Positions 4,610 to 47,159 are shown, numbered from the stretch's first letter. The stretch is 64,000 bases of DNA from an uncultured Candidatus Saccharibacteria bacterium (GCA_964349485.1 CAYGGE010000002.1:5737-69736), one strand, 5' to 3'. Made by a program: numbers and translations. The notes: generated from the letters alone by a model not told the origin.

Positions 4610-5266
4610 ATGATCCCGTGCCTAACCGGCAGGGGAATTTTTATATCGGAAATTACAAAAACTATGATCAACACTCAAACTCTACAATTTACCGACCAAC
4701 TGACGAAGATCCAGGAGAAAGCTCTGTTGGTGCTTTTAGTTATCCCGCTTGCCGTTTCGATCATTAACGCGACCTATTTAGTTCGTCCGGCCCAAGCTTT
4801 TGAAACGGCCAATCCTATTGAGGAACGACTGATTGACTTAACCAATGCCGAACGGGGACGTATTGGGCTACGAGCTTTAACCTTCAACTCAAAATTATCT
4901 ATCGCGGCCGAACAAAAGGCCACCGACATGTTAGCTAAGGGCTATTTCGATCACCAATCACCTGATGGCCGAGCACCTTGGGATTTCATTGAGAGTACTG
5001 GCTATATTTATCTCAAAGCTGGGGAGAACTTAGCCATCGACTTCCCGGAACTTAGTGAGGTTGTTCCTGCATGGATGGCTAGCCCAACCCACAAAGCCAA
5101 CATTGTCAAACCTGATTATGAAGAGATTGGTATTGCTCATGTACAAGGTAACTTTAATGGTCGCCAAACCACGGTTATTGTTCAAATGTTCGGTACCAAA
5201 CCAGTGACTACTGAGAAAGTGCTCAAAGCACTCGCTGAATCAATTAGTTCTCCCTTACCGTTCTAA
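4610..5266 (+). CDS. CAP/SCP (YkwD-like) domain secreted protein
   Basis: N-terminal hydrophobic segment. CAP motifs LTNAERGR...GYFDHQSPDG...GENLA...W.ASPTHKANI. Confidence 0.7.
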   Translation: MIPCLTGRGIFISEITKTMINTQTLQFTDQLTKIQEKALLVLLVIPLAVSIINATYLVRPAQAFETANPIEERLIDLTNAERGRIGLRALTFNSKLSIAAEQKATDMLAKGYFDHQSPDGRAPWDFIESTGYIYLKAGENLAIDFPELSEVVPAWMASPTHKANIVKPDYEEIGIAHVQGNFNGRQTTVIVQMFGTKPVTTEKVLKALAESISSPLPF

Positions 5267-5305
5267 CTGGTTGTACCTCGTAAGTTCTATGGTTACTAAC
5301 GAGAA

Positions 5306-5341
5306 AACCAGTTAACCAGACAACTAGTGAACTAGACAACC
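5306..5341 (+). repeat. Copy of a dispersed CTAG-containing intergenic motif (AACCAGACAACTAG / CTAGACAACC)
   Basis: Related copies at 8812-8865 and 45939-46001. Confidence 0.4.
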
Positions 5342-5387
5342 ACTCCCGGCTCTTTAAAATTACCCAATGTATCTATAGAATGGACTC

Positions 5388-6803
5388 ATGTCACTAACCT
5401 CTCTTGATCCCATTATCAATTTAGCCAAACGTCGTGGCTTTGTTTTCCCTTCCGCCGAGATTTATGGCGGGACTGGTGGAATTTGGGATTATGGGCCACT
5501 TGGGGTGTTACTCAAAAATAATATCAAAAATGAGTGGTGGAAAGCGGTGATACAGCGACGCTCGGATATGGTACCACTCGATTCGGCGATCATTACCAAG
5601 CACGATGTTCTCAAGGCCTCAGGTCATGTCGATACATTTACCGATCCTTTAGTAGAGTGCAAAAACTGCCACACGCGATACCGTGCTGATAAGCCACCGT
5701 TCGACTTGCCAGGCAATGTGTCTGAAAAAGATGTCGATGCAGTCGCAAAGATTACCAGTATCAATTGCCAGCACTGTGGTAAGAGCGTCTGGACGCCACC
5801 GCGTCGGTTTAACATGATGTTTAAAACGAACTTGGGACCAGTCGATAGTGAAGAGGCGATAGTCTATTTGCGACCGGAGACTGCTCAAGGGATATTCACC
5901 AATTTCAAAAATATCCTTGAAGTTAGCCGAAAGAAACTACCATTTGGTATCGCCCAGATCGGTAAGGCTTTTCGCAATGAGATCCAGACCGGGAACTTCA
6001 TCTTTCGAGACAGGGAATTTGAGCAGATGGAGATTGAGTATTTTGTGGCCCCTGAGGACTCGATACGGGCCCACGAGGCGTGGGTAGGGGAGAGGGAGAA
6101 CTGGTACCTAGATCTCGGTATGAAAAAAGACAACATTCGGATTCGCGAGCACGAGGAACATGAACGGGCCCATTATGCCAAATCAGCGTCGGATATAGAG
6201 TACAATTTCCCAGGCATTGGCTTCTCTGAACTCGAAGGTATCGCCAATCGGGGAGACTACGATCTCATGGCTCATCAGATGGCTTCAGGTAGAGAGATGA
6301 CCTATTTTGATGACACAACGGGCGATAAATTTGTGCCATACGTGATTGAACCGTCGGCTGGCTTAGATCGTGCCGTGTTAGCATTTCTTTGTGATGCATA
6401 TACCGAGTATCCGGATGGGCGGCAGGGGAGCTCGGAAAATTCGCCATCCGAAGTAGGTAATCCAAAAGATCAAAACGAATCCGAAACGGTACTTCATTTG
6501 CATCCTAAACTGGCTCCATATAAAGTCGCGATTCTTCCGCTCATGAAAAAAGAGGGCATGGCCGAGCTGGCTTTGTCGGTGGCCCAGGATTTACGTCAGT
6601 CATTTACAGTTACATATGACGAATCAGCCTCAATCGGGCGACGGTATAGGAGACAGGATGAGATTGGCACGCCCTGGTGTGTGACGATCGATTTTGATTC
6701 CCTTGCTGATCAGACGGTGACGATTCGTGATCGAGACACCATGGCTCAACGACGGGTGGCAATCAAAGAACTGGAAACAGTTATTCGTTCACTGTTGACT
6801 TGA
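5388..6803 (+). CDS. glyQS: Glycyl-tRNA synthetase (class II, GlyQS type)
   Basis: GGTGGIWDYGPLG, FRNEIQTGNFIFRDREFEQMEIEYF (motif 2) and a C-terminal anticodon-binding domain. Confidence 0.9.
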   Translation: MSLTSLDPIINLAKRRGFVFPSAEIYGGTGGIWDYGPLGVLLKNNIKNEWWKAVIQRRSDMVPLDSAIITKHDVLKASGHVDTFTDPLVECKNCHTRYRADKPPFDLPGNVSEKDVDAVAKITSINCQHCGKSVWTPPRRFNMMFKTNLGPVDSEEAIVYLRPETAQGIFTNFKNILEVSRKKLPFGIAQIGKAFRNEIQTGNFIFRDREFEQMEIEYFVAPEDSIRAHEAWVGERENWYLDLGMKKDNIRIREHEEHERAHYAKSASDIEYNFPGIGFSELEGIANRGDYDLMAHQMASGREMTYFDDTTGDKFVPYVIEPSAGLDRAVLAFLCDAYTEYPDGRQGSSENSPSEVGNPKDQNESETVLHLHPKLAPYKVAILPLMKKEGMAELALSVAQDLRQSFTVTYDESASIGRRYRRQDEIGTPWCVTIDFDSLADQTVTIRDRDTMAQRRVAIKELETVIRSLLT

Positions 6804-6830
6804 ATAATCAATAGAAATGTATGAAACGAC

Positions 6831-6859
6831 TTTACAATAGTCAGCCAATAGGCTATAAT
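6831..6859 (+). promoter_or_regulatory. Near-consensus sigma70 promoter TTTACA-N17-TATAAT immediately downstream of glyQS
   Basis: Read directly from the sequence. Confidence 0.45.
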
Positions 6860-6888
6860 CATCAACACATTCCCTAATTTGGGTCTGT

Positions 6889-6930
6889 CCAAGGGAGGTC
6901 CTGCGGAGGGTGTCTTCCTTGGTTTTTTTC
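6889..6930 (+). terminator. Hairpin CCAAGGGAGG...CTTCCTTGG followed by TTTTTTTCTT. It is either the glyQS terminator or a leader attenuator.
   Basis: Read directly from the sequence. Confidence 0.5.
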
Positions 6931-7340
6931 TTAGACGTCCAGCCTGTGACAAGGTTGGCCGGCGGGGTGTTGAGCTCGTATGCATCCGCTTGCGAACTGA
7001 GCTTCACCCAAGGCCCGCACCTGGGTAGGTTGAGAATTGCACACCCTTTAGCCGTACTCCGGGGTGTTGCAAGGTGTAAACCCCTAGGTGCGGGCACGCA
7101 TTGACGCCGTTCGTTCGATGCGCCTTCATTGAGCAAACTCATGATTAGGCGATTATGCCATCGAACGACGACGGACACGCACTGACGGTAATCGGTGCGT
7201 TACCCTGAAGATTCCAGCTTGTGCGCCCCTCGCCAGCGAGCAGGGTTGAAGCGCGGCAGTCGAGTCAACGGGGTCCGTTTTCGGATCAATTGATCCAAGC
7301 TTAGCGCTCGTGTCACTGACACGAGCGTTCTGCGTTTTTA
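6931..7340 (+). ncRNA. GC-rich, highly structured non-coding segment (candidate ~400 nt RNA, family unknown) ending in a strong intrinsic terminator
   Basis: No credible ORF. Several long complementary helices: GCCCGCACCT/AGGTGCGGGC, TCGTTCGATG/CATCGAACGA, ACGCAC/GTGCGT, CCCTG/CAGGG. A 10-bp perfect hairpin CGCTCGTGTC-ACT-GACACGAGCG is followed by TTCTGCGTTTTT at 7305-7340. Confidence 0.4.
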
Positions 7341-9306: not shown

Positions 9307-11031
9307 ATGAAACGTACGACAAGTGGACTCTCTGGTGCTCGCCTGGTTGTCTTGCAGGTAGCGACGGTCGTAATCACGTTCATCGTGATCGGCCGTCTTT
9401 TTGATCTATCGATAATCCGACATGCCAATGCTTTAATTACGGCAAAAAATCAATACGGGATCACCCAGACACTGCCTGCGACTAGAGGAATCATCGGTCT
9501 GCGCGACTTAAATGGGGGCAAGGACTATCCGGTCGCGATGAACGTTATCTCTTATCAGGTAGTGGCTGACCCGTTTCTGATTAAGGATCCACTGAAGGTC
9601 GCAGCTGTATTAGAGCCGGTGATCGGCATCTCGGTTAGTGATCTTCTGCCCAAACTATCTGATAAAAAGAAACGTTTCGTCATACTCAAAAAAAAGCTGG
9701 TAAAAGAAGACTCGAAAAAAGTTGATGACTTGAATCTACGAGGTATTAGTCTACAGCCAGTTGAGTCTCGACTATACCCAGAACTAACCTTAGCGGCTCA
9801 CACAATTGGTTTTGTCGATGCCAGTGGTGTAGGACGCTATGGGATTGAGAGTTTTTTTAACGAAGATCTGACAGGTTATGATGGCGAATTGGTCGGGGAG
9901 AAAGATGCCAAACGACGCATTATCAGTGAGGGTAAGTCAGCTAAGCCACGTGACGGTACAGTTATTACCTTGACTATCGATCGGAGTCTTCAGTTTATAG
10001 TTGAAAATCAATTACGCGAATCGCTTAAAAAATATGAAGCGGAGGGTGGTTCGGTGGTGATCATGGATGTTAAAACTGGCGCCATACTCGCACTGGCAAA
10101 CGAGCCGGGGTACGATCTGAACACGTTTAACGAGGTTCCTGCTGACCAACAAGAGCGCTTTATCAACCAAGCAGTCAGTGGAACATGGGAGCCGGGCTCA
10201 ATTTTCAAGACATTTACCCTGGCCGCCGCAATTGATCTCGGTCTGATTCAGCCTGACACCAAGGCTGATCTAGGTTGTAGCGCTAAAGTTGATGGCTTTG
10301 AGATACGTAACTCTCAAGACAAGTGTTATCCAACGCCAGACGTTACTCAAATCTTATCTGATTCGATTAACTTGGGAACGATATGGGCGGCCGATAAAAT
10401 AGGTAACCAGGACTTTGGTAAGTACATTTCAGACTTTGGCTTCGGCAGTAAGACGGGCATTGAACTACAGCCTGAGTCGACTGGTAAGGTAAGCGATAGT
10501 AACAAGTGGAAAAATGTTAATCGGGCGACCATCTCATTCGGCCAAGGCTTATCGGCTTCACCACTGCAAATAGTCGCCGCATATGCCTCAATAGGCAACG
10601 GTGGAAAGCTAATGCATCCTTATCTTGTCGCGAAGCGGGTAGACAGTAATGGCAAGGTCGTCGAGACAAAACCTCGCGAAGTTCGACAAGTTATTAAACC
10701 TGAAACAGCCGCCATGATGACCACCATGCTTGAGAAAGTGGTCACCGAGGGTCATGGCAAACGGGCTGCAGTTCGTGGTTATCGAATCGGTGGTAAAACG
10801 GGGACGGCTCAAGTAGTGGGAAAAGATGGCACTTACGAAGAAGATGCCCACATTGGCTCATTTGCTGGGATTTTCCCTGCTAATGAACCGCGCTTCGCGA
10901 TGATCGTAAAGCTTGATCGACCGAAGGCTGTCGAGTTTGCCGAGAGTTCCGCCGCACCAACCTTCAGTGAGATCGCCAAGTGGTTATTGCATTATGCCAA
11001 GGTGCCACCGACTGAAGTTGTATCACCATAA
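9307..11031 (+). CDS. ftsI: Penicillin-binding protein transpeptidase FtsI (PBP2/3 class)
   Basis: SIFK (SxxK), SDS and KTGTA motifs. N-terminal TM. Confidence 0.85.
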   Translation: MKRTTSGLSGARLVVLQVATVVITFIVIGRLFDLSIIRHANALITAKNQYGITQTLPATRGIIGLRDLNGGKDYPVAMNVISYQVVADPFLIKDPLKVAAVLEPVIGISVSDLLPKLSDKKKRFVILKKKLVKEDSKKVDDLNLRGISLQPVESRLYPELTLAAHTIGFVDASGVGRYGIESFFNEDLTGYDGELVGEKDAKRRIISEGKSAKPRDGTVITLTIDRSLQFIVENQLRESLKKYEAEGGSVVIMDVKTGAILALANEPGYDLNTFNEVPADQQERFINQAVSGTWEPGSIFKTFTLAAAIDLGLIQPDTKADLGCSAKVDGFEIRNSQDKCYPTPDVTQILSDSINLGTIWAADKIGNQDFGKYISDFGFGSKTGIELQPESTGKVSDSNKWKNVNRATISFGQGLSASPLQIVAAYASIGNGGKLMHPYLVAKRVDSNGKVVETKPREVRQVIKPETAAMMTTMLEKVVTEGHGKRAAVRGYRIGGKTGTAQVVGKDGTYEEDAHIGSFAGIFPANEPRFAMIVKLDRPKAVEFAESSAAPTFSEIAKWLLHYAKVPPTEVVSP

Positions 11032-37413: not shown

Positions 37414-38981
37414 GATGTCTCTTTCAAGTTATAGAGTGATTGGTATTTGGTTCGAATATAATCAACAAAATATTGGGCAGAGAGTGGTTCGCCAGTTACG
37501 TGCTCGATTAGCTTGGCTGCACTGTAGTAGCGACCATGGGCGTGCACATGTGAGCCCAGCCATGTTTTTATGCTACTGAAATCGCCGCTGGCCATCTCGG
37601 CATCCATATTGGGCAAGTCTTGTTGCATCTTACTGTATAACTGAGCAGCATAGAGAGTACCGAGAGTGTAGGTTGGGAAATAACCAAAATAACCGCTTGA
37701 CCAGTGGACATCCTGGAGTACTCCTAGCGCATCGCTTGGAACATCGATTCCTAAGTATTCCTTCATCTTCGCGTTCCAAAGAGCCGGAAGATCTTCTGGC
37801 TCGATAGTACCTTCGATTAAACCTTGCTCAATCTCAAAACGTAAGATGATGTGTAGGTTATATGTCACCTCATCGGCTTCAGTTCGAATGAGCGAAGGCG
37901 TGACACAGTTAATGGCTTTTAGGAATTCTGCAAGCTCGATATTCTCAAACGGTTTAGGGAAAGTCTCTTGCAGTTTTGGATAGAAATGGTCCCAGAAGGG
38001 CTTGCCCAAGCTTATCTCTGTCTCCCAGAGCTTGGATTGTGATTCATGGATGCCCAGAGAGATGGCTTCAGCTAAAGGTGTGCCGTAACATTCACAAGGC
38101 AGACCTTGTTCGTAGAGCGCATGGCCGACTTCATGGGTGGTGGTCAAGATGGCGTAGAGTAAATCTTTTTCGTTGTAACGAGTGGTTATCCGGACGTCTT
38201 CCGGATGTAAAGTTTGGGTGAATGGATGAGTACTCGCATCGATTCGGCCACAAGAGAAGTCATAACCGATCTGCTTGGCGATATGCTCGTTAAACTTGAT
38301 TTGAGTATCGATCGGGTAGGAGCCATCAAGTATGGTCCGGTCGATTGGTTGACCAGCGTCTTGGAGCTGTTTGAGGAAAGCGATAAGAAAGCGCTTGAGT
38401 TCAGCAAAGATGGGAGCTATCTCGCTGGCTTTGACACCAGGCTCGAAAGTGTCGATTAAGGCATCGTAAGCTGATTCCTGGTAGCCAACATAGTTGGCTT
38501 CCTGACGTTTTAACTCGATCATCCGTTTGAGCTGGGGGAGGAAAAGAGCAAAATTATTGGTTTCTCGAGCCTCGGCCCAGATGTGGTGTGCTTCACTGGT
38601 GACTTGTGTCAGCTCTTTAACGAAAGCCGTTGGTAGCTTCTGCTCTCGTGCGTACTCCAACCAAACTTCTCGGACAATTGCCGCTTCCCTATCAGGGAGA
38701 TTGCCAGCATCGAGTTGGGCTTTGGCTTTAGTCAGACAGCCATCGTCATCGATCGCTAAAAAACGTTCGTGGAGTAAGCCAGCCAGATAGCTCATGGTCT
38801 CGCCCCGTAATGACGCGCCTTTTTTGGGCATCTTAACTTGCTCGTCCCAAGAAAGGAGAGCCAACGTAGACTTAAGATGGGAGAGCTCACGAAGTCGCTC
38901 GCAAAGTTCACTACAGTGGATGTATTGCATAATGTCCTTTGACCTGCAGTATAACAATATACGTCTGGTTTGAGAAGGCAC
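37410..38981 (-). CDS. M32 carboxypeptidase (Taq-type)
   Basis: HEVGHALYE, HESQS and DxRxxxxEA-like motifs. Confidence 0.85.
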   Translation of the reverse strand: MPSQTRRILLYCRSKDIMQYIHCSELCERLRELSHLKSTLALLSWDEQVKMPKKGASLRGETMSYLAGLLHERFLAIDDDGCLTKAKAQLDAGNLPDREAAIVREVWLEYAREQKLPTAFVKELTQVTSEAHHIWAEARETNNFALFLPQLKRMIELKRQEANYVGYQESAYDALIDTFEPGVKASEIAPIFAELKRFLIAFLKQLQDAGQPIDRTILDGSYPIDTQIKFNEHIAKQIGYDFSCGRIDASTHPFTQTLHPEDVRITTRYNEKDLLYAILTTTHEVGHALYEQGLPCECYGTPLAEAISLGIHESQSKLWETEISLGKPFWDHFYPKLQETFPKPFENIELAEFLKAINCVTPSLIRTEADEVTYNLHIILRFEIEQGLIEGTIEPEDLPALWNAKMKEYLGIDVPSDALGVLQDVHWSSGYFGYFPTYTLGTLYAAQLYSKMQQDLPNMDAEMASGDFSSIKTWLGSHVHAHGRYYSAAKLIEHVTGEPLSAQYFVDYIRTKYQSLYNLKETS

Positions 38982-39033
38982 GGGGCTTCATGGGCAAAAA
39001 AAGACCTTGCTTGGTCGCAATAGTAAAGTTTTT

Positions 39034-39109
39034 TGGTCAGGGTGGCGGGGCTCGAACCCGCGACCTCCGGACCCCCAGCCCGACGCGCTACCAACTGCGC
39101 TACACCCTG
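39034..39109 (-). tRNA. tRNA-Pro (anticodon GGG), CCA encoded
   Basis: Reverse complement CAGGGTG...CACCCTG-A-CCA. Anticodon loop CTGGGGG. Confidence 0.8.
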
Positions 39110-39477
39110 TTTACGAACTATACATTATTCGTTAATAACTATTAATTTGTACTGTAGCTCCGGTGAGCGAAATGCCGTTGGTCTCGATTGGTGCAAGGTT
39201 GCCTTTCTAGTTGCCTAGAAGTGTATCGGCAGAGACCGCCGATACGGTATTCCAGTCGCTCAGTCATAAAATAACCAAGAACCGGAAGTGGCGAACCGTG
39301 GGTGCCCGCACGTTTGGTCCACGGACCAAACAGATATGAGGCCGTATCATCCGCCTCTACGATATAAACGAGACGAACGATGACCCAGTTGCAAAATGTT
39401 GAAAGCCCAACGACAAATCGTCACCGAGAGCTATAGGTACTCTAGCATAAGTAGAACATGAATTAAAGGGAAATAAC

Positions 39478-40113
39478 CTAGAAAATGCCAGGACTGCCGC
39501 CACCCATAACTAGACCGTATACGGCTCGTGCCGGAGTGAAGATTAAGGTTTGTAGCAATGGAAAACCGGCGTAGGAGAGAACAATTAATCCGATCAGCAG
39601 ATAAGAGCCGTATCGCTCGAGGTGCAAGTAGGTCTCAAAATCTAAGAAAGTACCGAGGATCTTTGAACCGTCGAGGGGAGGGATCGGGATCAGGTTGAAG
39701 AACATCAAGATTAGGTTGTACCAAACTATTGTCTGGGTGAAGATCATGGCGATCGAGCCAGTTTCTGGTTGAAACAGATAATTAAAGCCAGTGAACAACA
39801 GTGCTAGCAACAGATTAGAGATGGGTCCGGCCAAGGCGACTTTCAAATTATCAACCATTGGATTGCGAAAATTGTTAGGATTGACCATAACTGGTTTAGC
39901 CCAGCCTACGCCGATGACTAAGATCATGATGGTGCCAATCGGATCGAGGTGGGCTAGGGGATTGAGGGTCAGACGGCCCATCGACTCGGCAGTGGGGTCA
40001 CCAAGTCTCTTGGCGATAAAAGCGTGGGCTGCTTCATGAATCGACAAAGCCATAACCAGTGCGATTGCCAGGATAACGAACAATAGCGGATTCTGACCTA
40101 GGAGCTGGAGCAT
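39478..40113 (-). CDS. M50 family (site-2 protease-like) membrane metalloprotease
   Basis: HEAAHAFIAKRLGDPTA HExxH motif. Polytopic. The start is taken at MLQLL with RBS GGAGG. Confidence 0.7.
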   Translation of the reverse strand: MLQLLGQNPLLFVILAIALVMALSIHEAAHAFIAKRLGDPTAESMGRLTLNPLAHLDPIGTIMILVIGVGWAKPVMVNPNNFRNPMVDNLKVALAGPISNLLLALLFTGFNYLFQPETGSIAMIFTQTIVWYNLILMFFNLIPIPPLDGSKILGTFLDFETYLHLERYGSYLLIGLIVLSYAGFPLLQTLIFTPARAVYGLVMGGGSPGIF

Positions 40114-40210
40114 GATGAGACCTCCATTCTTGCACTTATTGCTTCTGTATGATACCATAGCAACGTCGTCAGTCGAAATTACTCTGTTTTGTATCAAGCA
40201 AGGAAACTAC

Positions 40211-40432
40211 ATGAAAATGCCAATTCTTACTTTCCGTGATTACTGTGTGATCTGCGGTAAAGGCCCACAAATGGGGCTCAACCGGCCGCACTCCTTAAAG
40301 AAGACCAAAAAAGTTATCCGACCAAACCTTGGGGTCTGGAACAACCTCAATATTTGCGCTTCCTGCCGAAAGAGCCTTTCCAAGCCCGAACATATTAAAA
40401 AAGTTCAGGTTAAAGAGCCAACCGCCAATTAA
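40211..40432 (+). CDS. rpmB: Ribosomal protein bL28
   Basis: CVICGKGPQMGLNRPHSLKKTKKVIRPNL...CASCRK. Confidence 0.7.
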   Translation: MKMPILTFRDYCVICGKGPQMGLNRPHSLKKTKKVIRPNLGVWNNLNICASCRKSLSKPEHIKKVQVKEPTAN

Positions 40433-40457
40433 TCTAGTTCATTAGAAAATCGGCAAC

Positions 40458-40487
40458 TAAAAAATCCCGTTTGCACGGGATTTTTTA
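40458..40487. terminator. Bidirectional intrinsic terminator AAAAAATCCCG-TTTGCA-CGGGATTTTTT
   Basis: Read directly from the sequence. Confidence 0.6.
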
Positions 40488-40502
40488 GTTTGAAAAGCCT
40501 GA

Positions 40503-40877
40503 TTACTCTTCAGAGGTGTTGCTGGTTGCAGCATCGTCAGAGACGGGAGCTGGTGTAGCGGCAGGAGCTTCGCCTCGGTCTGCAGCTTGCTTCTGTCGGA
40601 AACAGTCAGCACACAGAACGTTGCTAGGATCGCGGGGCTCGAAAGGCACTTCACCCTCTGCACCACAGTTGGCGCAGGTGATTTTGTGCATTGTTCGAGG
40701 ACCACGATTGTCCCGGCCACCGGCACCACCGGCTTGCTTCTGCTCTTTAATCTTGCGTCGGCAATCGGCACAGCGAATTGGAGCAGAGAAGCCCTTGGAG
40801 TTGTAAAACTCCTGTTCGGATGCGGTCCAGACAAAGTCTGTGCCACAATCACGACAGGTAAGCGTTTGGTCTTGCAT
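40503..40877 (-). CDS. Duplicated zinc-ribbon protein (two Cx2C...Cx2C modules) with an acidic Ala/Pro-rich tail
   Basis: TCRDCGTDF...CADCRRK and TCANCGAEG...CADCFRQK. Locally elevated GC. Confidence 0.5.
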   Translation of the reverse strand: MQDQTLTCRDCGTDFVWTASEQEFYNSKGFSAPIRCADCRRKIKEQKQAGGAGGRDNRGPRTMHKITCANCGAEGEVPFEPRDPSNVLCADCFRQKQAADRGEAPAATPAPVSDDAATSNTSEE

Positions 40878-41259
40878 GGTTCATTTCACCTATTTCGGTT
40901 TAGTACCACGGAGGAAAATTTTCCAGGGGGTAATAACCATTTGTCTAAGGGGACTCGACGCACCCTACGGATTTTCCTACGGGGTACCCTTACAATGCCT
41001 AGATTATAGCAGAATGAGTTAGAATAGTCAATCGGTTAGTTACTCCATTGACAAAAACGGATATTTCATGCAGTATATGTTACGAACGAGCCACTCTCGA
41101 ACAGTACTCGTTTTTTGACGGATCGTCCGTCAAAGCGGTTTCCATAATATAATGACTGTAAAAAGCATTCAAGGGCAGATCGCGCCAACGTTGCGCGTGA
41201 GGGTCTACATCTACTAACACCCCCCCTAATAACACCTCCCTAACGGGACTCTCGATCTT

Positions 41260-41297
41260 CTGGGCCGGCCATTTCTGTGGCCGGCCCAGCTTTTTTC
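41260..41297 (+). terminator. Very strong intrinsic terminator (12-bp GC stem CTGGGCCGGCCA/TGGCCGGCCCAG plus CTTTTTTC)
   Basis: Read directly from the sequence. Confidence 0.6.
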
Positions 41298-41407
41298 TGC
41301 GAGCGATACAATCCAGAGAACTGTCCCTAACTTAGTGCGTATTATAGTCATTGGTAAATGTTAAGTGTGGTATAGTGTTTACTACTATTCGAATTTAGGG
41401 AGCATAT

Positions 41408-41722
41408 ATGGCGAACAAATTACTTTTCTCGACGCTTATGAATGTCTCTCTTGCAGGGCTCTATATTTTTGGCATCTCACAATTTCTCTTTTACGGTGAA
41501 AAAATTTTTAACGCAACTGAAGATAGTAATTTGGCACCATTCCTGTTGTTACTTCTTTTCTCCCTCTCAGCCGCCGTAGTGGGCAGTCTAATTTTCGGTC
41601 AGGCCGTCATTTTTTTCCTGGAAAATAAACGATTAGAAGGCATAAAATCAGCTTTTTACAGTATCGGTTGGTTATTCTTATTCACCCTCATCATCGTTGT
41701 GGCTCTAGTCTTGATTAAATAG
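41408..41722 (+). CDS. Small hypothetical membrane protein (3 TM)
   Basis: RBS GGGAG. Hydrophobic. Confidence 0.4.
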   Translation: MANKLLFSTLMNVSLAGLYIFGISQFLFYGEKIFNATEDSNLAPFLLLLLFSLSAAVVGSLIFGQAVIFFLENKRLEGIKSAFYSIGWLFLFTLIIVVALVLIK

Positions 41723-41763
41723 TTATCAAAAAAAGGACAGAGCAGTCGGCTGTGACTGCTCTG

Positions 41764-42630
41764 TCAGAGATATGGGTTTGGTGCGTCGTTGATCAGAACG
41801 TGCCCCTCGATCGTCCGAAGAAAATCGAGCAACTTTGGGTTATCATTCCCAAAGAAGTAGGTTTGACGACCTTCGTCTGTTATTCCCTCCATGAAGTGCT
41901 TTCCGGACTTTAGTCGTGCGATCACGTCGTCAAGGTAGTAAGTCCTCGAATGTTCGGCGTGGTGCAAAGGCTTATTATGCCGTATCTGTAGATGGAGGAG
42001 AGCGAACTCCGGCATATTAAATGTGTGGAAATAGATCTCTGTGCCCTGTGGCTCATCGATTCCATACACATTCGCAAGCTGATCGTAGACATGTTCTCGC
42101 AGTCGCTCGAGGCTGGTGACATCTGACGCCTCAAGATCGAGTGGTGTCGCCAGGTATCGTACACACAGCTCTTCTTCGATCTCTCGTATACGCAGTTGTA
42201 ACAGACGATCGACTGTAATCGGTCCATCCTGTGGATCATGGCGCAGGAAAGGCTCGATTGCCCTGTGCGCATGCCAGGCTACCAGTTCGAGCCGACCAGT
42301 GTTTCTCCAAGATCTCGCAAAGTTCTGGAAGAGAGTCTCAGGAGCGTACTTGGGTAAGTTTGGTCGGACGAAAAAGGCACCATCAGCAGTCCTGCTGAAC
42401 AAGCTTGGACACTGGTTGAGAAAATCCCGATCAACGGATGGCGCACCGTTGAGGAATTCTCTAACGAAGTCAGGGAGTCTTACCTGGTGGTAGGCAACCC
42501 TCAGATTCTCAAGGGTGTTGTCCGGAAACCGGACAATTTGACAATATGGTATACCGTAGCGATTATCCTTATTCCGGTTCATTGCCTTAGCTTTCTGGAC
42601 TAGTGTTATACGGGTCAGAACACCAAACAC
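41764..42630 (-). CDS. Hypothetical protein with Rx(4-6)H-like HEPN-type motifs
   Basis: HAHRAIEPFLRH and RHNKPLHH. No confident family assignment. Confidence 0.4.
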   Translation of the reverse strand: MFGVLTRITLVQKAKAMNRNKDNRYGIPYCQIVRFPDNTLENLRVAYHQVRLPDFVREFLNGAPSVDRDFLNQCPSLFSRTADGAFFVRPNLPKYAPETLFQNFARSWRNTGRLELVAWHAHRAIEPFLRHDPQDGPITVDRLLQLRIREIEEELCVRYLATPLDLEASDVTSLERLREHVYDQLANVYGIDEPQGTEIYFHTFNMPEFALLHLQIRHNKPLHHAEHSRTYYLDDVIARLKSGKHFMEGITDEGRQTYFFGNDNPKLLDFLRTIEGHVLINDAPNPYL

Positions 42631-42773
42631 TCTAGATTGTATATTCTGAGCGTGATAACAGCATATACTAGCTTACCTGACCACTTTAGTCAATGTATTG
42701 AGTAGGTCTTGTGCATGTTGTAAAATGACCTAACTAACAACAAAGGGTTGTTCATGCCTGAGAAGGAATAGAA

Positions 42774-43127
42774 ATGTACCTCGTGACAATTTCTGGTCTG
42801 CCGCTGGTTCTGACCTATGGTAGTGTAGCCAAGGATCTTGCAATGAAGTTGGTGCCAGAAGCAATCAAGATGCACGATCCTGAAGCTGAAGTTGTAGTCT
42901 TTGAACCTGCTGATCTTGTTCAATGGCGTCGCGGTGAGGTCATGATGTGTAGGATCGATTCTGACCGCTTCGATAACATCAGTCACAGACAGGCAGTGGT
43001 AAGTGCTGTCGCCGATGCATTTCGGGGCATAAGGAGTTCAATGATCAGTGATACGACCGAGCTTAAGACGTGTAAGGTCGTTATCTACACTGGTCTGCTA
43101 AACATCGATCTGGAAACAATTATCTGA
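42774..43127 (+). CDS. Hypothetical protein (117 aa)
   Basis: RBS-like AAGGAATAG. A GC hairpin follows downstream. Confidence 0.35.
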   Translation: MYLVTISGLPLVLTYGSVAKDLAMKLVPEAIKMHDPEAEVVVFEPADLVQWRRGEVMMCRIDSDRFDNISHRQAVVSAVADAFRGIRSSMISDTTELKTCKVVIYTGLLNIDLETII

Positions 43128-43407
43128 GGACAAAGGAGCCTTGCGTCCGGTGGCTGTAGCTACCGGACGAACTCGTTATATATGCAATATATTAGATTCT
43201 AAAGATAGACATATTTCAAAGAAGGTATCGGGGTAATGTCTGTACTCGTATTTTTGGCAGGCCATCGCCGAAATTGTTAGAACTCTTTGTACTAAGAACA
43301 CAGATCTCATAATTCCTGAGTTTGCGATAACTTAAAAGGCGACCCATACGAGGGGCCGCCCTGCCAGCTAACTGCTGGTGCAATATTTGATTATGTTGCG
43401 CCTACGA

Positions 43408-44220
43408 CTAGGCTGCGACGCTCAGTCCCTTCACGCGAGCCGGATCGAGCTTGCTGCCACCTTTGGGGAAGATGGTGGCGTAGCCGAGCATCAGCATGTT
43501 GAAGTGGATGCGGCCGTCACTGATGTTCTGCGGGACGGTGTGTTCGGCATTGACGGTCAGGCGGTTGATATGCCAGAGCTCCCACTCGCCGTTCTCGGGG
43601 TTAATACGAGCCGTCCACTCGCCTTCGATGATGACCTGGCCGTTCTGGATCTCCATGCTTTTGATCGGTCCGCGGTAGGCCACGCCGTCTTCGACAGACT
43701 CCAGATCGCCACCGATCAGATCGGTTCTGGCGAGCACCTGGTCCCAGCGAAGGTGAGCTGGGCCGCGACCCGTAGCGTTGGAGAGCATCAGGATCTCTTC
43801 GGGCGGATCCCAGCGATCCCGCACGCTCATCGTATCCTGAGTTTCCAGATACCGATAGGGGACGTAGACGGTCTTGCCGTGGGGCGGTGCCCAGAGGGTC
43901 ACTTCGGCCTGCTCGTTGTCGGTCGGATGACAGCCGCTGATGACGCCGTAGACCTCCTTGGGCTCGCCGTAGTAGATCCAACTGATCCAGACGATGGTAG
44001 CGGTGGTGCGCTTGGCCTCTTCAGCCTCCCGCTCCGTCCGTTCCCATCCTTCTTTCCAGGTCTGGAACTCGGCTTCCGAAACACGAAGGTGCTCGGGCCG
44101 TTCGTCCTTGATCATCTGGAAGCCCGCGAAGCGGCCTTCCCGACAGGCGGACTTGGCGAGATATTCCCGATCCCGCTTCTGTTCTTTTGCCCACTGGTTC
44201 TTCATCCATCGCTCGTTCAT
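43408..44220 (-). CDS. Hypothetical protein encoded in a ~62% GC segment (likely horizontally acquired)
   Basis: Strong RBS GGAGGAG before ATG. Trp/Glu-rich sequence. The +strand 285-aa ORF over the same span looks like an antisense shadow. A minus-strand hairpin terminator lies at about 43340-43375. Confidence 0.45.
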   Translation of the reverse strand: MNERWMKNQWAKEQKRDREYLAKSACREGRFAGFQMIKDERPEHLRVSEAEFQTWKEGWERTEREAEEAKRTTATIVWISWIYYGEPKEVYGVISGCHPTDNEQAEVTLWAPPHGKTVYVPYRYLETQDTMSVRDRWDPPEEILMLSNATGRGPAHLRWDQVLARTDLIGGDLESVEDGVAYRGPIKSMEIQNGQVIIEGEWTARINPENGEWELWHINRLTVNAEHTVPQNISDGRIHFNMLMLGYATIFPKGGSKLDPARVKGLSVAA

Positions 44221-44427
44221 CGGTCTCCTCCATAGGCCGTCATGGTGACGGCGGTAGCGAACGACTAAAGTATCGAATTAAAGAGCGCCAGAGGATAGAG
44301 GTAGTAATACTGCACCTCGATCGTGACGCAAAAGTATAGCATAAATCATCAGGTTTGTCAACCTGTTAAGAACTAAAAAACAGCGGTTCAGCTGTATCAG
44401 TTGAAATTCATATTTTTATAGAAGTGA

Positions 44428-44967
44428 TTAGCTTAGTAAGCGTTTAATTTCATCATGCTTCTCTGGGTGTTTTTCTAACCAAAGATGAACGCCTCGCTCT
44501 ACGTTTTCAGGGGTTGGAACATAACTAATAACATTCAGATTAGCGGGCTGGTTGATCGGTTCTGGATCGTACTTTCGTTTCAGCTTTAGGATAATTTCAA
44601 TAGCTCTAAGTCTAACAGTCCAGTCTATATCACTAAGATACTCATAGGTCTTAGCGCCATCTTTTTCAATGGCTGTGGCATTGATAGTTTTTGTTGCCAA
44701 TGTAGCGGCCTTTAGTAAGTCAGCTACCCACTTATCAGATAATCCTGATTCTTCTAGCTGATCTGAAAAATCAAGTTTTCTCAAGTTCTCGTGGCCTATC
44801 TGTGCTGCGCTTTCTCGACTAGTCACATCATAAGCTCTAGACGCTGCTTCTGTTGCATTCCTGGTCTCAATGTACTCTTTGACGAAGACATGTTCTTTGA
44901 TCGTTTTTGGAGGACGTGTAGACATGCTATTGTCGGGTCGCCACAGTGTGCTAGAGATCCACGACAT
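44428..44967 (-). CDS. Phage terminase small subunit-like protein
   Basis: HVFVKEYIETRNATEAASRAYDV...IGHENLRK resembles the Terminase_2/P27-type HTH region. Confidence 0.5.
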   Translation of the reverse strand: MSWISSTLWRPDNSMSTRPPKTIKEHVFVKEYIETRNATEAASRAYDVTSRESAAQIGHENLRKLDFSDQLEESGLSDKWVADLLKAATLATKTINATAIEKDGAKTYEYLSDIDWTVRLRAIEIILKLKRKYDPEPINQPANLNVISYVPTPENVERGVHLWLEKHPEKHDEIKRLLS

Positions 44968-45874
44968 TGTTAATAATGAGTGGGGTTATCGTACCAGGAA
45001 GCTGAAGAAAACGGGTGGTAAACCACTCCATCCCTCCATGCTCTACGACATGTTTAAGAACCCGCTTTACTATGGTCAAAACATCCGTCCTGATGGAACG
45101 GTCCACCAATGTGCCCATAAGACCATGGTGACAGAAGAGGAGTTTTGGCGAGCTCAAATCTTACTTGGCCGTAAAGGACGCACCCGTTCTAAAACCCACA
45201 CATTCGCCTACACGGGGTTAATTCAATGTGGGGAGTGTGGATGTGCCGTGACAGCCGAAGAGAAGCATAAGATCAATTTAAACGGTGGTATGCGGCACTA
45301 TATTTACTACCACTGCACGAAAAAGAAGCTCGATCACAAATGTACTCAACCATCATTTGAGCAAAAGGCTCTCGAGCGCCAAGTTGATGCCCAATTGGAG
45401 AGAATGGCGATCTCAGAGAAGTTCAAGGACTGGGCAATTAAATATTTAAAAGAAACCAGCGAAGATCAGATGAGTCAGTACAATCAAATTACCAAAACGC
45501 AGCAAAGCGCTTATGCTGATGTCGAGAAGAAGCTTGGCAAATTGCTTGATCTAAAACTGAACGAGCTCATAACCGACGAAGAGTACAAGACTAGTAAAGA
45601 ACAATTACTAGCCGAACAAGTCGGTATCGAAGAGCAACTAAAGGCAAATAAGTACAGCTCACATAATTGGATCGAACTAGCCGAAAAAACCTTTGATTTT
45701 GCCTGTCACGCCCGTTACTGGTTCCAAAATGGTACCCTTGAAGATAAAAAAATAATCCTTCAAACCATCGGAGGATCGAACCTCTCGCTGAAGGACAAAC
45801 AACTACGATTTGAACCAGATAATATCTTCACTGTGCTGGCAAATCGGGACAAAAATTCGGATTGGCAGGGGTAG
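44870..45874 (+). pseudogene. Large serine recombinase remnant. Recombinase domain, Zn ribbon and coiled coil are present. The N-terminal resolvase catalytic domain is missing.
   Basis: ...GYRTRKLKKTGGKPL..., CGECGC...YYHC zinc ribbon, C-terminal coiled coil. The stop overlaps the tRNA-Trp 3' end. Confidence 0.6.
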
Positions 45875-45936
45875 AAGGAATCGAACCCTCGTATCAGGTT
45901 TTGGAGACCTGCGTTCTACCATTGAACTATACCCCT
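45863..45936 (-). tRNA. tRNA-Trp (anticodon CCA), CCA encoded
   Basis: Reverse complement AGGGGTA...TACCCCT-G-CCA. Anticodon loop CTCCAAA. Confidence 0.75.
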
Positions 45937-45938
45937 GT

Positions 45939-46001
45939 GCTAGCTATCTGGTAGCTAGTTGTCTGGTTTTTATACCTAACTAGACAACTAGATTACTAGA
46001 C
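45939..46001 (+). repeat. Copy of the CTAG-containing intergenic motif with inverted repeat CTAGTTGTC...GACAACTAG
   Basis: Read directly from the sequence. It lies between tRNA-Trp and rpmG. Confidence 0.4.
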
Positions 46002-46003
46002 AT

Positions 46004-46171
46004 CTATTTAACTTCTTTATGTGCAGTGGTTTTCATGCATTGTGGGCAGTATTTTTTGAGTTGCATGCGATCCGTACCAGAGTTGATCTTATTCTTACTG
46101 GTTCGATAATTAGCCCGACCACATTCTGGGCAGGATAACGAAAACTCGAAGCGGTTACCTTTTTTAGCCAT
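46004..46171 (-). CDS. rpmG: Ribosomal protein bL33
   Basis: MAKKGNRFEFSLSCPECGRANYRTSKNKIN...KKYCPQCMKTTAHKEVK. Not in the ORF track because it is under 60 aa. Confidence 0.8.
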   Translation of the reverse strand: MAKKGNRFEFSLSCPECGRANYRTSKNKINSGTDRMQLKKYCPQCMKTTAHKEVK

Positions 46172-46257
46172 ATGAACTCCTAGAGATAATAACGCATATT
46201 ACTTAATAGATTATGTGGGGCTATGGTACTTCTCGTCGCATAGCTCCTCGAAGCAAG

Positions 46258-46333
46258 TGGAGCCACCTGTCGGATTTGAACCGACGACCCGCTGTTTACA
46301 AAACAGCCGCTCTGGCCACTGAGCTAAGGTGGC
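46258..46333 (-). tRNA. tRNA-Thr (anticodon TGT), CCA encoded
   Basis: Reverse complement GCCACCT...AGGTGGC-T-CCA. Anticodon loop TTTGTAA. Confidence 0.75.
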
Positions 46334-46334
46334 A

Positions 46335-46409
<75 letters not shown>

Positions 46410-46477
46410 ATTTTTGCAAATGAAGCAAGAAAGTATCAAACATCTCACAGGGGTAGCTTCTCACCAATTCGCCGATA

Positions 46478-46563
46478 TGGTGCCGGGTGAAGGATTCGAA
46501 CCTCCGTAGCCCGAAGGCGTCAGATTTACAGTCTGATGTAATTGGCCACTCTACCAACCCGGC
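46478..46563 (-). tRNA. tRNA-Tyr (anticodon GTA), class II with long variable arm, CCA encoded
   Basis: Anticodon stem-loop TCAGA-CTGTAAA-TCTGA. Variable arm CGCCTTCGGGCTACG. Confidence 0.75.
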
Positions 46564-46631
46564 ACACCAAATAAGCCTGAATCACCTGACAAATGTACCA
46601 TATTGTTTGACTTTTGCCAAGGGACGATGAG

Positions 46632-47159
46632 TTACTTTTCTCGAAGAGCTTTGAGAATTTCTTCTCGGACAATCTTACGCAGTACTTTAGCCATCTCGTC
46701 GGTTGCAATAGGCTCAGACGATGGATCAGACACCTCTTCATCTAGATCGGAGATGATGGCCGCTTCTGCCTCATCGATATCCTCAGACAATTGTCGTTCG
46801 GTTTCATCAAGATCTTTCATGAGGGCCGCTTCTGTCTCATCGATATCCTCTGAAATAGCTTCCTCTAACTCATCAAACCCTCCTACCAAGGTCTCGGTTT
46901 GTTGACTGACTGAACGCTGGATGAAGATGGCGAGATAGATCGCTTCAAGCGACACCACTGTCGTTAGGATCAGCAGTACTGTGTCGAGAGCGACGCCAAA
47001 GGCGACTAGTGCAAAGATGATCAGAAAAAACAGGGTATGGAGAAACAGTGAAGTCGTTGAGCCAACCCAAATCATGGCCCTATTGGTCATGCGATCGAGT
47101 ATTGGGGGTTCTTGTGGTGTTCTCACCGCCACTTTTCTTGTTGTGCGCTTTCCGTTCAT
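46632..47159 (-). CDS. DUF1003-like two-TM membrane protein with an acidic repeated C-terminal region
   Basis: LDRMTNRAMIWVGSTTSLFLHTLFF... Repeats of L.KDLDETE / SEDIDE.EAA. The +strand ORF 46603-46905 is a shadow. Confidence 0.45.
   Translation of the reverse strand: MNGKRTTRKVAVRTPQEPPILDRMTNRAMIWVGSTTSLFLHTLFFLIIFALVAFGVALDTVLLILTTVVSLEAIYLAIFIQRSVSQQTETLVGGFDELEEAISEDIDETEAALMKDLDETERQLSEDIDEAEAAIISDLDEEVSDPSSEPIATDEMAKVLRKIVREEILKALREK

Follow-up and report, generated by a model that had tools for sequence, protein, structure and literature searches.

A compositionally foreign gene cassette of an uncharacterised beta-barrel family in a tRNA-adjacent variable region of a Saccharibacteria genome

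A sharply GC-rich block in the genome of an uncultured Candidatus Saccharibacteria bacterium is best read as a moron-like, monocistronic accessory gene of an uncharacterised beta-barrel family, horizontally acquired and lying in a decayed integrated element downstream of a tRNA-Trp gene, a reading to which we assign a probability of roughly 60%. The block was found in a 64,000-nt (64-kb) stretch of assembly GCA_964349485.1 (CAYGGE010000002.1:5737-69736), hereafter the window, from whose first letter its positions are counted. We propose that a monocistronic cassette, consisting of a promoter, a 5′ untranslated region (UTR), a 270-aa ORF and a hairpin, would have arrived horizontally and would now reside in the decayed remains of an element that had integrated downstream of tRNA-Trp. 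The cassette may have been transferred as part of a mobile element or into one, and expression from its near-consensus predicted promoter would probably be constitutive.

The GC content is ~61% at 43330-44255, compared with 46.6% for the whole window. In 200-nt windows it holds at 0.595-0.63 over 43400-44199 and drops to 0.375-0.46 outside the block, a level reached by 43100-43399 at one edge and from ~44200 at the other. At a scale of 800 nt the block peaks at 0.611, while the rest of the window gives 0.465 ± 0.021 with a maximum of 0.535 (z = 6.8), which bears out the sharp block of ~62% GC noted in a preliminary description of this DNA. It is the sole strong compositional outlier in the 64 kb, and its dinucleotide delta* lies in the top 0.7% of windows. 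The transitions span ~60-100 nt at both edges, and the edges coincide with a terminator-like hairpin (~43336-43362) and with a 5′-UTR hairpin and start codon (~44220-44252). The limits originally given for the block, 43378-44250, match a spurious ORF on the plus strand; the functional unit is, as predicted from the elements set out below, a compact promoter-to-terminator cassette at 43329-44365.

At the level of the gene, the 270-aa ORF has a GC content of 60.6%, with GC1/2/3 of 0.61/0.43/0.775. Its GC3 ranks first of 49, against 0.464 ± 0.053 in the other ORFs. The comparison of codon usage proposed in the preliminary description also singles it out, with a codon bias B of 0.675 against 0.29 ± 0.09 and a maximum of 0.50 elsewhere. 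Translational selection for high GC3 was considered and rejected in this genome: the genes of the ribosomal proteins L33 and L28 have an ordinary GC3 (0.43 and 0.51), and high expression thus fails to account for the excess. The neighbouring genes of the element are also host-like, with 200-nt windows of 0.375-0.50 over a terS-like ORF and a recombinase remnant and a GC content of 0.44 for the remnant ORF itself. Hence, the composition of the 270-aa gene is foreign to the window genome, and that of the cassette is unlike both host and element.

Full-length ORFs are open on both strands of the block, one of 270 aa on the minus strand (43408-44220) and one of 285 aa on the plus strand (43378-44235). 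The preliminary description had reported both, taking the former for the gene and the latter for an antisense shadow, and we reach the same assignment. In the minus frame GC3 exceeds GC1 and GC1 exceeds GC2, as is expected when GC-rich DNA is read in its true coding frame. GC in the plus ORF peaks at position 1, which pairs with position 3 of the minus frame. The product of the minus strand has homologues, and against the closest of them, encoded at locus L004 (71% amino-acid identity), dN/dS in the minus frame is 0.27. These comparisons show the minus-strand gene to be real and, as judged from the substitution ratio, under purifying selection. In the antisense frame, which is codon-complementary, stops arise solely from the sense codons TTA, CTA and TCA, none of which is used by the 270-aa gene, and the plus ORF is therefore an automatic shadow. 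The frame stayed fully open in 2000/2000 synonymous-codon permutations of the gene and is interrupted in homologues (for example 70/192, 74/194 and 67/114 codons). A plus-strand gene was rejected, given that codon choice explains the openness of the frame and that homologues do not keep it open.

A broader doubt is whether the block holds a protein gene here at all, the alternatives being a structured RNA, a plus-strand gene or a chimera of the assembly. For these one can cite the long ORFs on both strands and one sub-threshold Rfam match, sR32, which scores 16.6 bits where the gathering score is 40. However, three further assemblies share these junctions, the 270-aa protein is called identically in the independent assemblies L001-L003, and in L004 the ORF is conserved along with its AT-richer regulatory flanks. 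Rfam scans by gathering score and E-value returned no credible structured RNA or riboswitch, and a fold signal is absent from both the whole transcript (z = -1.46 against shuffles) and the 5′ UTR (z = -0.96). Added to the dN/dS of the minus frame and the codon-choice origin of the plus ORF, these results leave such explanations hardly any chance, and we consider them effectively refuted.

The elements of the cassette all lie on the minus strand. The predicted promoter (44333-44361) is of the sigma-70 type, with TTGACA, a 17-nt spacer, TATACT and an extended -10 TG (11/12 matches). Counted from the start that this promoter implies, the 5′ UTR is ~100 nt long (44221-44325), with ~80% identity to L004, and it contains a 7-bp hairpin (44236-44252). 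The strong ribosome-binding site described earlier, GGAGGAG, is indeed present at 44225-44231, 4 nt before the ATG. A terminator-like hairpin (43336-43362) begins 46 nt past the stop codon and has a 10-bp stem and a 7-nt loop followed by UUUU. The hairpin terminator of the preliminary description therefore stands as regards its stem, which is stable compared with shuffles (z = -3.0), and less well as regards termination, given that the U-run is just 4 long and a simple terminator scan made no call there. Across the family, a hairpin and T-run lie downstream of most copies, and a near-consensus promoter of the form TTGACA-17-TGCTAnAAT precedes nearly every copy (L005-L010, L013 and L020). An unrelated neighbour gene in L021 (a 112-aa ORF, ~10440-10480) is preceded by a like promoter, and the motif looks like a general strong-promoter consensus of these genomes.

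Locus L004, on a 69-kb contig from another sample, has 80% nucleotide identity to the window over 43778-44327, a stretch that takes in promoter-proximal DNA, the 5′ UTR and codons 1-148. The -35 element and the TGCTA of the -10 element are shared with the window promoter, and the 3′ flank with the hairpin (43329-43387) is 90% identical. The alignment shows the putative cassette to be conserved between the two loci; in L004 the neighbours are unrelated, a His_Phos_1 fragment and an acetyltransferase gene flanking the cassette. The part that encodes the C-terminal domain in the window (43388-43777) corresponds to a mere 41 nt in L004, and the final seven codons there, KKLCVTT*, resemble KGLSVAA* in the window. 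The two modules of the window protein recur together in a more distant homologue, P0008 (48% identity), so the fused form would be the older one and L004 derived from it by internal deletion. The L004 contig also carries a second sharp GC block (0.56-0.61) over a radical-SAM gene at 5000-5800, which drops to 0.34-0.38 within ~300 nt, and the contig is patchy beyond the family gene.

The 270-aa protein is made up of two modules. Residues 1-148 (43777-44220, minus strand) are predicted to form two long helices followed by four strands (pLDDT 50-70), and residues ~156-268 (43417-43755, minus strand) a small beta-barrel domain for which AlphaFold, with an alignment of 72 sequences, gives a short helix and eight strands (pLDDT 97-98). 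The homologue search suggested in the preliminary description gave relatives in number but no known family. A word-index search found seven homologues, and an exhaustive HMMER search, run over 1.84 billion cluster representatives, gave 211 proteins at E <= 1e-3, 83 of these at E <= 1e-10. Nearly all of the 211 matches cover residues ~156-268 alone and are standalone proteins of 105-135 aa, while the N-terminal module is rare (P0002, P0008, P0021, P0043 and P0212). For the 270-aa protein itself there was no match in Pfam, PHROGs, NCBIfam or PADLOC, and searches of the PDB with phmmer and with profiles gave no match for the window protein or the family. Among the relatives, 43 members scanned against Pfam and 100 scanned against NCBIfam and PHROGs belong to no curated family, fusions and one weak PHROG match (phrog_32481, E = 0.0076) aside. 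The sole Pfam matches are those of P0036 and P0085, in which the beta-barrel domain is fused to a histidine phosphatase domain (His_Phos_1) that provides the match.

A few members have other N-terminal extensions, and forms of ~190 aa have a conserved helical tail ending in HQKVY. In the long forms L005, L006, L007, L011 and L015 this tail is ~80 aa long (...EEFLWxYIEAVTGEKxVHQKVY); the window protein and the forms of 115-125 aa lack it and end just past a KVKGL motif (window 43408-43431). In L004 a short His_Phos_1 ORF (6796-7203) lies just upstream of the gene with the N-terminal module. A functional link to histidine phosphatases was considered and dropped, as this fragment has no specific similarity to the fused domains. 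The predicted domain can be compared with small beta-barrels of the Sm/LSm/Hfq-like or PH-like kinds, but structural Z scores are always below 8 with a de novo designed barrel as the top match, those barrels have five strands versus eight in the window domain, and neither by sequence nor by profile does the latter resemble a PDB chain. The product would be cytoplasmic, and we would guess, with low confidence, that the barrel binds a ligand (nucleic acid or protein) and that its role is not one of housekeeping but accessory or related to conflict or host interaction. Where sources are named they are Candidatus Saccharibacteria, Microsaccharimonas, Paceibacterota, Uhrbacteria or "Patescibacteria group", and a scan of GTDB with the alignment of the C-terminal domain, of limited sensitivity, matched Saccharibacteria alone. 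So far as sources are named, the C-terminal family thus appears restricted to CPR/Patescibacteria.

On the minus strand, the window runs through an intact tRNA-Tyr (46478-46563), two tRNA-Thr genes, rpmG (L33) and tRNA-Trp(CCA) (45863-45936, minus strand). Past the 3′ end of tRNA-Trp follow a remnant of a large serine recombinase, a terS-like ORF, the GC-rich cassette and three ORFs without matches. The recombinase remnant (44870-45874, plus strand, 334 aa) has Recombinase and Zn_ribbon_recom domains and matches phrog_95; the catalytic resolvase domain is absent from the ORF and from the DNA upstream in all frames. Over its first 98 nt the remnant overlaps the beginning of the oppositely oriented terS-like ORF (44428-44967, minus strand), which is host-like in GC and of which the N-terminal part alone matches PF03592 and phrog_51. 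From these truncated domain matches, both look like decayed genes of an element. The three further ORFs encode 288 aa (41764-42630, minus strand, with a mild rise in GC to 0.56 at 42100-42299), 117 aa (42774-43127, plus strand) and 104 aa (41408-41722, plus strand), the last two each alone in their 90% clusters, and none has a match in Pfam, PHROG, NCBIfam or PADLOC. They stand between the cassette and the zf_Tbcl and L28 genes and are probably part of the same variable region as the cassette.

A relative of this region, L021, was found through the 90%-identity cluster of L33. It is colinear with window positions 54097-46005 (~8 kb, 67-72% nucleotide identity) through L33, and its tRNA-Trp follows directly (10202-10275). 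Synteny stops at the 3′ end of tRNA-Trp, and past it the genes of L021 are unrelated, with no tblastx match, within the 1.6 kb that remain before the contig ends, a length that limits any claim of absence there and counts against the moron reading to that extent. As L021 differs past tRNA-Trp, the region downstream of this gene is variable, and its start with a recombinase remnant is the signature of an old integration. The gene comparison shows the 270-aa gene to lie in a variable, tRNA-adjacent region with a recombinase remnant. Taken together, the tRNA-Trp, the recombinase remnant, the terS-like ORF and the synteny break support horizontal acquisition. A point against it is that no att-type direct repeat of the 3′ end of tRNA-Trp occurs within 38500-46700. 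Searches for a phage or plasmid origin gave no tblastn match in INPHARED or PLSDB, and scans of IMG/VR gave none either.

Other copies of the family are also found near tRNA genes. In L008, a Candidatus Saccharibacteria locus, a 125-aa member separates the tRNA-Tyr and tRNA-Thr genes of the tRNA/L33 cluster described above, a site at which a gene is absent from both the window and L021. The members in L010 and L007 lie ~120-165 nt (depending on the start codon) from tRNA-Gln and ~770 nt from tRNA-Glu, respectively. In L021 tRNA-Thr and tRNA-Tyr are separated by a PDDEXK_5 gene, and the tRNA-Tyr itself is split in the anticodon loop by a group I intron (9539-9768; RF00028, 72.7 bits, E = 3.9e-18). 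The tRNA-Tyr/Thr/Thr/L33/tRNA-Trp cluster is an insertion hot spot (window 45863-46563; L008 1-1000; L021 9000-10300).

Morons are independent accessory transcription units in phages and prophages, with their own promoter and terminator and an atypical GC content (Cumby, Davidson and Maxwell 2012, PMC3594210). The window gene resembles them in its own predicted promoter and terminator-like hairpin, in a GC content sharply unlike that of the flanking element genes, and in its position between a terS-like ORF and small ORFs, with related copies in unrelated contexts. It differs in that what is left of the element amounts to a truncated recombinase and a partial terS, without structural genes; in that the family lacks matches in PHROGs (the weak phrog_32481 aside), INPHARED and IMG/VR, with no related intact phage known; and in that most family members are found in ordinary chromosomal contexts. 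The terS-like ORF and the truncated, integrase-like recombinase are the sole phage-type flank of the cassette, all other neighbours being without matches, and for an element without phage structural genes the label of prophage is weak. The region can also be set beside tRNA-associated islands, which it resembles in abutting the 3′ end of tRNA-Trp, in its recombinase gene and in the break of synteny at the tRNA. Here, however, the recombinase is of the serine type without a catalytic domain, so no functional integrase is present, flanking direct repeats are lacking, and just the 0.9-kb cassette rather than the whole region is compositionally atypical.

The preliminary description had proposed recent horizontal acquisition from a high-GC donor, and its two parts fared differently. 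The foreign composition and the variable, tRNA-adjacent site agree with acquisition, but the high-GC donor is not shown, given that the named relatives are all CPR/Patescibacteria, that fetched flanks have 35-54% GC and that the excess of GC3 is family-wide. It had also held that homologues at the same GC level in close relatives would indicate a conserved native gene. Such homologues do exist (62% in L006 and ~60% in L007), yet they are themselves non-syntenic GC islands in low-GC genomes and so give no indication of a conserved native gene.

Direct capture from a high-GC organism outside the CPR, for example the actinobacterial host of an epibiotic Saccharibacterium, is improbable in our judgement. 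Saccharibacteria live on high-GC Actinobacteria, and the codon positions of the gene (0.61/0.43/0.775) fit a genomic background of ~56-65% GC by the Muto-Osawa and Lawrence-Ochman regressions, which reproduce the values of the host ORFs. The preferred codons CGG, CCC, CCG, CAG and CTG also look driven by mutation bias and not by tRNAs. Nevertheless, no named match is attributable to a non-CPR organism, the GTDB scan, within its limited sensitivity, points to Saccharibacteria alone, and CPR-like flanks of low to middling GC surround all 17 related loci for which there is DNA (35-54% GC in fetched loci). In addition, the promoter and 5′ UTR, both conserved in L004, have 47-48% GC and follow the CPR promoter type.

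The composition of the window gene is shared across its family. GC3 was ranked among local ORFs of >= 120 aa at ten other loci with the C-terminal domain, and the family gene came top in 9/10 and second in the remaining one; the exact chance of ranks this extreme is 11 / 7.6e10, or ~1.4e-10. Mean host GC3 ranges over 0.26-0.65 and that of the family gene over 0.56-0.87, the two being unrelated, and even in the GC-richest host, L011 (mean GC3 0.65), the family gene still ranks first. The high-GC3 copies are mutually diverged (dS 0.7-1.6), and the upstream non-coding DNA of the family genes is host-like. In most members the GC implied by GC3 exceeds that implied by GC1 and GC2, the reverse of amelioration, although the amino-acid composition of a single gene weakens this test. 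One recent transfer out of a genome of high bulk GC fails to explain this family pattern, and both the family-wide excess and the level of GC3 above that implied by GC1 and GC2 count against recent transfer with amelioration. This leaves either an unsampled high-GC reservoir that repeatedly seeds CPR genomes or a gene-specific force that holds GC3 high.

These ranks, the stability of rank in L011, the codon-position pattern, the divergence between copies, the host-like upstream DNA and promoters, and the restriction of named sources to CPR/Patescibacteria all favour a family that has been long resident or slowly mobile in CPR and whose high GC3 was made in place by a gene-specific force. Such a force could be selection for GC-rich codons or mRNA, whether for stability or to escape nucleases that target AT, or it could be GC-biased gene conversion at a locus prone to recombination. 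We nonetheless consider this unlikely, as the copies are non-syntenic, several abut tRNAs or occupy variable regions, and the copy in the window adjoins a recombinase remnant. Moreover, the excess (up to +0.5 GC3) is far above the known effects of bacterial biased gene conversion or translational selection, the signal for RNA structure is absent (z = -1.46), and relatives with the N-terminal module only, in L016 and L018, are no GC3 outliers. We retain the moron-like, horizontally acquired cassette as the preferred reading.

Taken alone, an accessory gene of foreign composition in a variable region next to a tRNA is of a known kind and a routine case. In practical terms, the analysis establishes the minus-strand gene as real, dismisses the antisense ORF and flags a stretch of mobile DNA in a CPR genome, and it defines an uncharacterised small beta-barrel family with 211 cluster representatives, several architectures, a confident predicted fold and no curated family. 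What neither a single transfer nor expression level explains is the family-wide excess of GC3. As a tentative and rather doubtful suggestion, a gene-specific process may hold the synonymous GC of this beta-barrel family far above that of the host in many CPR lineages, candidate processes being selection acting on the DNA or its mRNA, a hyper-recombining locus subject to biased gene conversion, and continual re-seeding from an unsampled high-GC, CPR-associated replicon. If this were true, the copy in the window would be an instance of a general, undescribed compositional phenomenon and not a one-off transfer, and if the excess were intrinsic, the family would provide a clean natural test case for the determinants of synonymous GC in bacteria.
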